In this document: positions 19,609-21,516 of the stretch, piece by piece
How the letters are laid out: the number at the start of each line of letters is the position of its first letter
Numbering within the stretch: the stretch's first letter is position 1
From: a virus
Reading direction: 5' to 3' (one strand)
IMG/VR virus record: IMGVR_UViG_3300035150_000015
Location: 1-64,000 of that record
DNA: 64,000 nt
The notes under the pieces: model-generated
What the model was told of the DNA's origin: nothing
The model's database searches: none
What the model saw: the letters and a program-made list of their open reading frames with translations, nothing else
Made by a program: the position numbers and the translations under genes

Positions 19609-20277
19609 CAGGCTACCTTCCAACTACTATAAGATAGAAACTTACAATCTTCAGGCTTGGCATTCTGGCACAATCTTTTTCCAGTCTTCACAGAGTGTAG
19701 ACTTATTCTATCGTTACTGGTACCACCTACATAAACCACACCCCGCTTACGATGTGTCACCAGAGATCCTCTCTTGAACCCTAGGCTCCGAGTTCCCCCA
19801 TAAGGCCTCCGGTCCCCTCCTTTTGAAGGCTTCATAGCATGGAGCTGCCTCCTATGTAGCCTAATAGGACTAACACAGAGAAGACTAGTATTGTCAGGCT
19901 TCGTATGACCTCCGACTGACCAGTTGGCCAGAACCCAGGAATCCACGCAATGAGCCTCAAAGACTTCAGCAAGCTTCCTTGAGGTCTTCTTCAACCCCAA
20001 CTGATCTCGAAGTTCTTTGGTCTCCCATCCTTGCTTAAGATCCACTAGAGCGATCCTGGAGAGCTCCCTATAGAACCAGTTTTTCCCAAATTCCAAAGGA
20101 GTGAAAGACCGGTCCCATCCCCTCTGGCCCTTGGTCCTAGCCTTTATATCCTCCACCACGAATTGAAAAATAGGAAACATCTTAGTTACCCACCAAGCGA
20201 TACGTATTTTCCACTGCCATCTGGTTTTCACCGACGGTGAGAGGAATTTGGTTACTATCCACTACAGGGACATACAT
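19608..20277 (-). pseudogene. isrB: IsrB-like (HNH-less IscB family) OMEGA nuclease, internally deleted
   Basis: N-terminal MYVPVVDSNQIPL (start of PLMP domain) joined out of frame to LSPSVKTRWQWK. RuvC-II VVEDI, RuvC-III AHCVDS and HRRQLH retained with no HNH between them; RuvC-I and RRXRR helix missing. Confidence 0.85.
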
Positions 20278-20478
20278 TGGAACGGTAAGTCTCCTTGCGG
20301 AGTGTGTACAACCCTTCGACACTGACCAACCAAGGGAAGAGAGACTAGGGTGGCATCCCTCATGTTGCTCGACCTGCCATGGTCAGTTGGTTCAGTTGGG
20401 AAGCCTAGCTTCCCTTGTCTAATCAACCGTTTCTGCCCTCAAGTTTGGCCTTGGTTGATACTCCTCCATTGCAAAAAC
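20278..20478 (-). ncRNA. omegaRNA (guide ~20478-20460; scaffold ~20459-20278)
   Basis: Non-coding gap directly upstream of isrB. 5' stem ATCAACC/GGTTGAT, hairpin GGGAAGC-TAG-GCTTCCC, ACCCT/AGGGT pseudoknot-like pairing, terminal CTCC-GCAA-GGAG hairpin. Confidence 0.8.
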
Positions 20479-21516
20479 TTACTCCTCCTCTTCATACTCT
20501 TCCATAGCCAATACCAGCAAACCGGACGATACGGCAGTCAACGGATTAGTGGCGTGACGTACCTCAGAAATATCAATAGGGAAGTCCTTCTTGATACTTT
20601 CAAACTGGGCCTTGAATACATCCATGAACCCAGTGGCCAAACTCGTGCCCCCACTGACCACGAAGGGGATGGGGTCAGGGAGAGTAACATTCCCCGAGAC
20701 CTTCTTGAACTCAGACATGATTGCTTCCAAACAATAGTCAATGAGATTCGAGAGATAAAAGCCAATAGCCTCTTGCTCCCGAGAAGTGGGGTGGCCAAGG
20801 TCAGCTTCCTTCTCCTTGATGGCACAAATTTGGCTGGCCGTCTTGCCAGTAGCCTTGGCAGCACTCTTGTCCACCCAGTCTCCACCCCTAGCCACCGAAA
20901 AGCTCATGGCAATGCTAGCCTGGTAAAGTAGAGCAATGTTGCACATACCACTACCAAAACTCACAGCCAGACCCGAGAAATTGTCCTCGGCGCATTGGCT
21001 ATATACGATGGCCGAAGCCTCGTTCGTGGGATGCGGCGTATACCCATGAGTCTGGATGATTTTCCGGAAAACTTCCGTGTGATAAATGATATCCTGGTCT
21101 GGGTCATCCAACGGAGCTGCAGGTACACTGTAAAAACAGTGCTCATTGGAAATAGTTGGAGGCCCTAGAACCTTCTTGACCAGCAAACTCAAGATGCGCT
21201 GAGCATCGAGCTCCCCGGCGGAAATGACGCCCCGTTGGAGAGGCCTGCGAGCCTCACGACGGAAGAGATTGGCCATGGTCAGGGCGCTATCCCCAACGAC
21301 TACCAGGTTGTTTCCCTCCTGCACATAGTCCACCTTGGACAGCCTGAGGGATCGCTTGGCCGCCATGTCCAAATCCAAAAATGCGTCTCGAATCGGCGTA
21401 TGCTGCGGACCTTCGCTCTCGCTGCGGCGAGAGGAAATGATATTCATTGTTCCCACATCGAGCCCTACGCCGGGCAAATAATCGGATGGCCCCTTAGGAG
21501 CAGTTTTCTTACTCAT
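20479..21516 (-). CDS. actin-fold ATPase (MreB/MamK/ParM-like)
   Basis: GLDVGT (phosphate-1), NEA (connect-1), VSFGSG (phosphate-2), VVSGGTS (adenosine), AVSSG (connect-2). Confidence 0.85.
   Translation of the reverse strand: MSKKTAPKGPSDYLPGVGLDVGTMNIISSRRSESEGPQHTPIRDAFLDLDMAAKRSLRLSKVDYVQEGNNLVVVGDSALTMANLFRREARRPLQRGVISAGELDAQRILSLLVKKVLGPPTISNEHCFYSVPAAPLDDPDQDIIYHTEVFRKIIQTHGYTPHPTNEASAIVYSQCAEDNFSGLAVSFGSGMCNIALLYQASIAMSFSVARGGDWVDKSAAKATGKTASQICAIKEKEADLGHPTSREQEAIGFYLSNLIDYCLEAIMSEFKKVSGNVTLPDPIPFVVSGGTSLATGFMDVFKAQFESIKKDFPIDISEVRHATNPLTAVSSGLLVLAMEEYEEEE

Follow-up and report, generated by a model that had tools for sequence, protein, structure and literature searches.

Does the DNA between an actin-like gene and its conserved neighbor in a giant-phage genome encode a working RNA-guided nuclease, or the remains of one that once moved between phages? 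The question arises at positions 20478-19609 of a 64,000-nucleotide stretch of the IMG/VR virus record IMGVR_UViG_3300035150_000015, which we call the window. It covers the first 64 kb of a viral record that is 104,443 bp long and a fragment of a giant phage (CheckV completeness 22%), and the features of the locus are given here on the minus strand. An earlier note, made from the sequence alone, had recognized an IsrB nickase gene with its guide-bearing omegaRNA, a system of the OMEGA type (obligate mobile element-guided activity). It read the guide as a recoded copy of the end of the neighboring actin gene and proposed that the nickase acts as a free-standing homing or phage-competition nuclease. 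We compared the locus with other viral loci and alleles (L-numbers) and with protein homologues (P-numbers). The element is an IsrB-omegaRNA relic. We consider it probable, though far from certain, that these 870 nt are a decaying remnant whose guide stems from the end of a different actin allele and came in together with the element. On this reading, the locus is a trace of past spread between phages and not a working weapon.

The recognition of an IsrB element was borne out at the protein level. A 207-codon open reading frame (ORF) at 20231-19608 matches the solved IsrB of PDB entry 8DMB with an E value of 6e-14; the match is limited to residues 290-476 of the tagged chain and covers ORF residues 8-189. 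The ORF also matches phrog_32617 at profile positions 159-363 of 382, and it is 64-75% identical to IsrB proteins of about 340 aa that carry an RRXRR domain. The closest of them (P0122, 75% identical) lies on an 80-kb contig, and a search of viral contigs gave nothing above 69%. With tblastn and an alignment of the family (A2), these comparisons place an isrB remnant at 20243-19608 that corresponds to approximately residues 121-331 of full-length relatives, only the C-terminal 60% of the protein. The 207 remaining codons are free of stop codons.

The rest of the gene is broken. In alignment A2, the window ORF is without the first ~126 residues, which hold the PLMP domain, the RuvC-I motif GIDPGSKKEG, and the arginine-rich bridge helix. 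A tblastn search with the homologue P0148 placed residues 2-14 at 20277-20239 as the first 13 isrB codons (MYVPVVDSNQIPL, with which the PLMP domain starts), and their frame differs from that of the residues 121-331 that follow; about 106 codons are deleted between the two matches. The RuvC-I catalytic aspartate and the bridge helix fall inside this deletion, and of the PLMP domain only MYVPVVDSNQIPL survives, out of frame with the rest of isrB. The deletion fuses the PLMP start to ..LSPSVKTRWQW.. at CTCTCA (window 20238-20243). RuvC-II (VVEDIKA; Glu) and RuvC-III (HCVDSW; HxxD) align with invariant A2 columns, and the remnant keeps the C-terminal region that interacts with the target-adjacent motif (TAM) and has no HNH insert. 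The RRXRR domain (PF14239), present in every full-length relative listed, has no match in the remnant, and neither a second isrB nor an RRXRR domain was found in the 104-kb record. To judge from these losses, the nickase would be dead and the element unable to nick DNA on its own, and the proposal that it acts as a homing or competition nuclease finds no support here.

The element also lacks the parts of a transposon. No match to the Y1 transposase TnpA (PF01797) was found in the 104-kb record, and there is no left-end hairpin: because the isrB stop overlaps the start codon of the next gene (TGA at 19610-19608; TGATG at 19610-19606), no room is left for one. The reported absence of tnpA and of an insertion sequence (IS) end therefore stood, with the qualification that isrB is only partial and the scaffold incomplete.

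The omegaRNA scaffold (copy 1) occupies 20459-20278. By blastn, with E values down to 1e-26, over 25 viral loci have sequence homologous to it directly 5' of an intact isrB gene, and the homology ends at the isrB start. Copy 1 begins with ATCAACC (20459-20453), which pairs with GGTTGAT (20428-20422) as had been described; this S1 stem is retained, as is the core from GGTTGAT to GACTTACCG. The family scaffold begins GTCAAC(Y)ACC and continues into a conserved, covarying hairpin that is, by position, stem-loop 1 (SL1) of the RNA of DtIsrB, the enzyme of Desulfovirgula thermocuniculi in 8DMB. Relative to the family consensus and to a second scaffold in the same record (copy 2, described below), copy 1 lacks about 35 nt, namely this transposon-end hairpin plus adjacent bases. 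In the DtIsrB RNA, SL1 is dispensable for nicking and the adaptor pseudoknot formed by SL2 is essential (PMC9581776), and copy 1 may or may not still be able to guide after its ~35-nt loss. A single-sequence fold of the scaffold gave z = -0.96, an exact-pattern scan of viral contigs for the scaffold returned nothing relevant, and Rfam gave no omegaRNA family at the gathering threshold in the window, with chance-level matches only at E up to 10. The Rfam family HEARO is described for IscB-type RNAs.

The guide position, directly 5' of the scaffold, is held by a spacer, GTTTTTGCAATGGAGGAGT, at 20478-20460, which begins at the first base past the resident TAA stop codon of the actin gene (20481-20479). 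It is a diverged and truncated copy of an actin 3' end (VFAMEE..). The resident gene reads GTATTGGCTATGGAAGAGT (20514-20496), ATGA (20495-20492), and then AGAGGAGGAGTAA. Guide and resident near-target agree at 15 of 19 positions, the mismatches lying at guide positions 3, 6, 9, and 15, and all four fall at third codon positions (VFAMEE versus VLAMEE), as the earlier note had observed; one of them, TTG to TTT, is nevertheless non-synonymous (L to F). The two tail copies are offset by exactly 36 nt (12 codons), and their similarity extends to 19 of 24 positions (..TAT-AA). The resident near-target is the sole site within five mismatches of the guide on both strands of the window and the sole site within four in the 104-kb record, and in a shuffle test the spacer's match to the final 60 nt of the actin gene had p ~0.001. 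A chance match is therefore unlikely. No sigma-70-like promoter was found upstream of the guide.

From which actin allele does the guide stem? In an alignment with 23 homologues, the resident tail ...VLAMEEYEEEE* has the form usual for its clade, the closest tails being ..EESEEED (P0001) and ..EEYEEDDED (P0002, whose actin is 90% identical). The only close allele with DNA, L084 (91% amino-acid identity), is 78% identical to the window's actin gene in DNA, with 73% of the differences at third positions, so about four third-position mismatches are expected in any 19 nt. The guide's four would thus be ordinary allelic divergence and are not evidence of deliberate recoding, and the claim of wobble recoding did not survive this comparison. 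Guide and resident allele are 79% identical, and this 21% divergence is about that between the window allele and the 91%-identical phage allele (22%); the source of the guide would have been an allele other than the resident one.

This divergence bears on a different explanation, in which the locus is, or recently was, an RNA-guided homing cassette of the free-standing ("intronless") kind. Its guide would be directed against the actin of competitors, with the resident allele shielded by the four mismatches; a nick in a co-infecting genome would be repaired from the carrier, copying the cassette and adjacent markers into the target. It is true that the guide differs from a resident allele that carries an ATGA compatible with published TAMs (PMC9581776), and the possibility that OMEGA elements home from one co-infecting phage to another has been raised on theoretical grounds (PMC13565253). 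The absence of a transposase and of a left end would suit a cassette of this kind, and so would the loss of SL1, given that DtIsrB nicks without it. However, this isrB has neither RuvC-I nor bridge helix nor PLMP domain, and no other isrB lies in the 104 kb. The third-position pattern is that of ordinary allelic divergence, and the alleles we could examine make poor targets. L084 reads GTTTTGGCCATGGAAGAAT-CCGA, with four guide mismatches, no better than the resident, and no ATGA; it is probably free of the element, because its contig, which ends 9 nt past the stop codon, shows a Shine-Dalgarno-like TCTGGAGGT there. Among 67 more distant alleles, guide mismatches number 3-10 with no exact match, and the best has three mismatches followed by ACGC. 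The guide further encodes F at a position where 117 of 118 homologues have L and none has F, which looks like drift and not like a guide kept matched to live targets. Overall we regard homing now or in the recent past as unlikely. The expectation that element-free alleles would match the guide better and keep ATGA was not borne out in this sample, which contains one close allele; a scan of genome contigs for close actin relatives gave a single 51% match and the phage collection only matches of 52% and 28%. Of the idea that the guide is aimed at other alleles and the resident one protected, the difference from the resident allele stands, and no better-matching allele was found.

Intact relatives show how such guides and boundaries arise. 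Two IsrB copies in one 135-kb viral contig (L219:2268-3548 and L231:2265-3544) are 89% identical over 1281 nt. Their similarity sets in exactly at GTCAAT, the scaffold start; the 20-30 nt before it show no relation, and the shared end runs into ATGA. Because the similarity starts at GTCAAT with unrelated guides before it, the guide lies outside the element and is simply its flank, a rule already published for OMEGA elements. The placement of the guide directly 5' of the scaffold was confirmed by this boundary. Each of the two copies has a hairpin after isrB and ATGA at its right end, and this still-mobile relative defines the boundaries of the element. An NTGA/NTG type of TAM also fits: ATGA follows L219 and L231, ATGG lies closely downstream of the elements in L164, L187, and L204, and the published IsrB TAMs are NTGA, NTG, and NTGG (PMC9581776). 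The ATGA after the resident near-target would be compatible with these if the window element starts at ATCAAC.

That the 870 nt (20478-19609) are an insertion follows from the neighboring genes. Upstream lies an intact 345-aa actin-like gene of the volactin family (21516-20479; Pfam PF25216, Volactin, E = 2.3e-69), and downstream a conserved 387-aa gene that starts MYY.. (19608-18445), with tblastn matches in 78 of 80 viral loci. In these 78 of the 80 related giant-phage loci the actin gene adjoins the 387-aa gene, mostly across gaps of 0-20 nt. The junction in L008 and L069 reads TGATGTACTAC, and the identical string stands where the window's isrB ends and the next gene starts. The TGATG had been taken as coupling isrB to the next gene; it is present, and is better read as the ancestral junction between the actin stop and the next start. 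About 20 relatives hold other inserts here: Endonuclease VII and helix-turn-helix (HTH) genes (L051:5007-5825, L025:5013-5648), a weak PDDEXK-like ORF (L042:1700-2506), or a 492-aa ORF of no recognized family (L065:5017-6495). A search with nhmmer found no omegaRNA relics in these other inserts. The junction is thus a recurrent landing site, a hot spot, for homing-type genes, and the Endonuclease VII, HTH, and weak PDDEXK-like matches in L051, L025, and L042 count in favor of a homing role for the window's element as well.

The arrangement is found a second time. Copy 2 of the scaffold (locus L003; record 80671-80910, minus strand, with the feature region extending to 80937) lies outside the window, about 60 kb from copy 1. 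It has SL1, its core is ~94% identical to that of copy 1, it has no isrB, and it is followed by a terminator-like hairpin and T run. It sits behind a primase-like gene (PF13155), and its 34-nt spacer starts at the first base past the TAG stop codon. Its opening TCGGTGTATACT agrees at 11 of 12 positions with TCGGTGTATTCT, which lies 32 nt upstream (p ~0.005, shuffle test), and the rest of the spacer (..FLVGENR.) is unlike the resident tail GVFWKQNTI*. This tail is the normal one of the clade's primases, since P0241-P0244 end in close variants such as GVFWKQNAI. Both loci therefore have the same layout, in which a complete native-like tail with a non-TGA stop is followed by a diverged copy of the same gene's tail and then by the scaffold. 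The two spacers are not significantly similar to each other (p ~0.15).

Recurrence at a second conserved gene of the same genome is again what a homing cassette would show. Set against this, 13 other phage IsrB loci with a nearby upstream stop codon showed no tail duplication in a spacer-versus-tail test, and a guide-versus-upstream test of ~55 IsrB loci found none elsewhere either. A related 485-kb phage (92% complete) has one isrB and one scaffold only, which speaks both against homing and against a further explanation: that the two scaffolds are standalone omegaRNA genes used in trans by an intact IsrB, encoded by the host or in the ~78% of the genome that was not sampled, while the cis isrB decays. 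The cores are still ~94% identical though the cis isrB is broken (copy 1) or absent (copy 2), pairing is preserved, as judged by eye, at several of the positions where the copies differ (G-U pairs, or compensatory changes in the last hairpin), and copy 2 ends in its terminator-like element. Standalone trans-acting omegaRNAs are moreover known for IscB, according to work cited in PMC9581776. Yet no intact isrB was found in the 104-kb record, where both guides also lack any other match within four mismatches, and the ~35-nt loss beside SL1 in copy 1 may include part of the next hairpin, whose adaptor pseudoknot is essential in DtIsrB. Both scaffolds might still be used by an IsrB from the unsampled part of the genome, and we regard the trans explanation as very improbable.

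The decaying-remnant reading is the simplest explanation of all these observations, by the following putative steps. Ancestral elements would first have made ordinary insertions at the ends of different, diverged actin and primase alleles. Recombination between phages would then have carried them in together with ~20-34 nt of donor flank, and they would have landed directly behind the resident stop codons, with a left junction that is non-homologous at the stop; equivalently, the resident tail may have been restored from another phage. Finally, the elements would have decayed, copy 1 losing the N-terminal third of isrB and SL1. The source actin allele was probably short-tailed. Removing 20459-19610 would give an empty site ..GAG GAG TGA TG TAC.. 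(tail ..EE*), and removing 20458-19612 would give ..GAG GAG TAC TGA TG.. (tail ..EEY*); on either reconstruction, a short-tailed actin would end in a TGA that overlaps the next ATG. Such short forms occur among relatives: L029 and L030 end in VLASEE*, L042 has VLAEQEY* with ..TACTGAT, and L008 and L069 show the TGATG.

The tail copy could in principle have been made in place, as an insertion or repair scar or by slippage, and have diverged afterward, with no foreign allele involved. A tandem duplication of this kind would suit two copies that adjoin directly and in register at an offset of exactly 36 nt, and also the comparable 32-nt offset at copy 2. Entry of the element at T|ATGA, however, predicts the rest of the tail (ATGAAGAGGAGGAGTAA) after isrB, and it is absent there. 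At copy 2, the sequence past the 12-nt match is unrelated to the resident tail, so that duplication of a whole unit misfits, and a 21% divergence confined to third positions fits two alleles that were each under coding constraint. IS200/IS605 elements, in addition, make no target duplication. Local duplication is therefore, in our estimation, highly improbable. An assembly chimera was considered and ruled out: the two sides of the junction have no long sequence in common, the layout occurs at two loci, and the remnant protein is found on two contigs.

Several points weigh against the decaying-remnant reading. No allele with the reconstructed empty site was found among the 67 alleles or in an exact-pattern scan of viral contigs, whose single match was an unrelated AT-rich phage; because there is neither such an allele nor a relative with the same insertion, we infer the foreign origin of the relic and do not see it. 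The right boundary, and with it the TAM, is ambiguous at the level of single bases: in one reconstruction the first A of the scaffold must be flank sequence, the other calls for GATG, a non-canonical TAM, and a boundary of the L164 type (flank starting CTGA) combined with the family left boundary leaves no stop in frame. That the non-homologous junction falls exactly at the stop codon in two separate loci exceeds the regularity expected of random illegitimate recombination, and we offer no mechanism for it. The ~94% core identity and the pairing-preserving differences could mean that the RNAs are still under selection. Lastly, 22% of the genome was sampled. The regularity at the stop codons and the structure-preserving differences between the scaffolds leave both the homing-cassette and the trans-guide readings conceivable.

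Among known systems, the closest comparison is DtIsrB (Hirano et al. 2022, PMC9581776). The protein aligns with it over the C-terminal 60% (E = 6e-14), in both systems a large structured RNA precedes the gene closely and has the guide directly 5' of it, the first embedded hairpin of that RNA corresponds to SL1, and TAMs of the NTGA/NTG type are plausible here. The window's element differs in being phage-borne, in a protein without PLMP, RuvC-I, and bridge helix, and in a scaffold without SL1 and adjacent bases. With the IsrB elements of the ISC1/IS200-IS605 kind (e.g. L219 and L231) it has in common the (G/A)TCAAC scaffold start, a guide equal to the flank, and insertion at a gene junction by a TG-containing motif. 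It differs from them in that TnpA and the left-end hairpin are absent and that copy 1 is also without SL1, the right-end hairpin; nor do their ordinary insertions make what the window has directly upstream, an uninterrupted diverged copy of the target with its own stop. Copy 2, a scaffold with a guide-position spacer and no adjacent isrB, resembles the standalone trans-acting IscB omegaRNAs of work cited in PMC9581776, except that it may be a mere relic and that the 104 kb gave no trans IsrB. In sum, the object belongs to a known family, has decayed, and stands in an arrangement that is unusual and occurs twice.

The role usually assigned to OMEGA nucleases is to cut the empty donor site on behalf of their transposons. 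A further role in driving spread between co-infecting phages, like that of protein homing endonucleases, is a proposal only, and the locus gives no proof of it because its nuclease is dead; past homing by an intact ancestor is plausible but unproven. The protein counterparts are the free-standing homing endonucleases of T-even phages, SegF, SegB, and Mob, whose intronless homing is reviewed, along with the proposed non-restorative homing of OMEGA elements, in PMC13565253. As in those phages, a nuclease gene lies between conserved genes (adjacent in 78/80 loci) with a putative target in the neighbor gene, self and target would differ only by substitutions, and Endonuclease VII-type genes occupy the same junction in relatives. 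In contrast, recognition would be by RNA and would lead to a nick instead of a double-strand cut, the window's nuclease is inactive, and no sensitive allele was found. Mobile endonuclease ORFs of fungal mitochondria (Allomyces atp6; Glomus atp6, atp9, cox2, and nad3) form hybrids with a duplicated C-terminus (PMC3630166). There, too, a mobile endonuclease arrives with a diverged foreign 3' end, so that native-like and foreign tails stand side by side. In the fungi, the foreign tail is translated and the native one displaced downstream of the endonuclease, whereas the window has its native-like tail translated and the foreign piece wedged between that tail and the element, in the guide position.

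Transposon-end-less IsrB-omegaRNA cassettes may conceivably have moved among diverged giant phages as RNA-guided homing elements that enter conserved gene junctions, each invasion leaving the donor gene's end as a guide behind the recipient's intact but mismatched end; we regard this broader picture as doubtful. If true, intronless homing and the fungal hybrids with a duplicated C-terminus would have a counterpart guided by RNA. Three things can be taken from the locus. Protein homing endonucleases and an IsrB element have both used one conserved giant-phage junction, and at two loci the guide is a diverged copy of the neighboring gene's end and not the resident sequence. The reconstructed short-tailed allele and the resident allele offer a testable pair of targets, and if intact relatives with the same layout exist, RNA-guided homing between phages becomes directly testable. 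Of the original homing interpretation as a whole, the IsrB-omegaRNA identity, the position of the guide, the type of TAM, and the missing tnpA were borne out; the active nickase, the wobble recoding, the better-matching alleles, and the coupling of isrB to the next gene were not supported.

The relatives also gave some observations on how IsrB elements sit among phage genes. At eight loci in seven distinct contexts (L165, L169, L172, L185/L186, L190, L211, and L229), the upstream ORF reads into the scaffold and ends 19 nt inside it, at a TGA or TAA in the SL1 loop. Judging from these reading frames, the final codons of phage genes are a common site for such IsrB elements, which then provide the stop codon. 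We also considered whether isrB itself borrows its stop from the TAM, an idea weakened by L204 and L187, which have their own TAA. An intact IsrB in a 485-kb phage (L164:2419-3640, LR745208.1; identical in sequence to L200) has an upstream ORF that ends inside the scaffold. Only identical copies of the L164/L200 element and no empty-site relative were found in the collection, so the right boundary and TAM of this subfamily are uncertain. The isrB stop of L164 overlaps the ATG of a cold-shock-like ORF (GGAGGGTATGGTGA), and this element may have split one gene and now supply the Shine-Dalgarno sequence and start codon.

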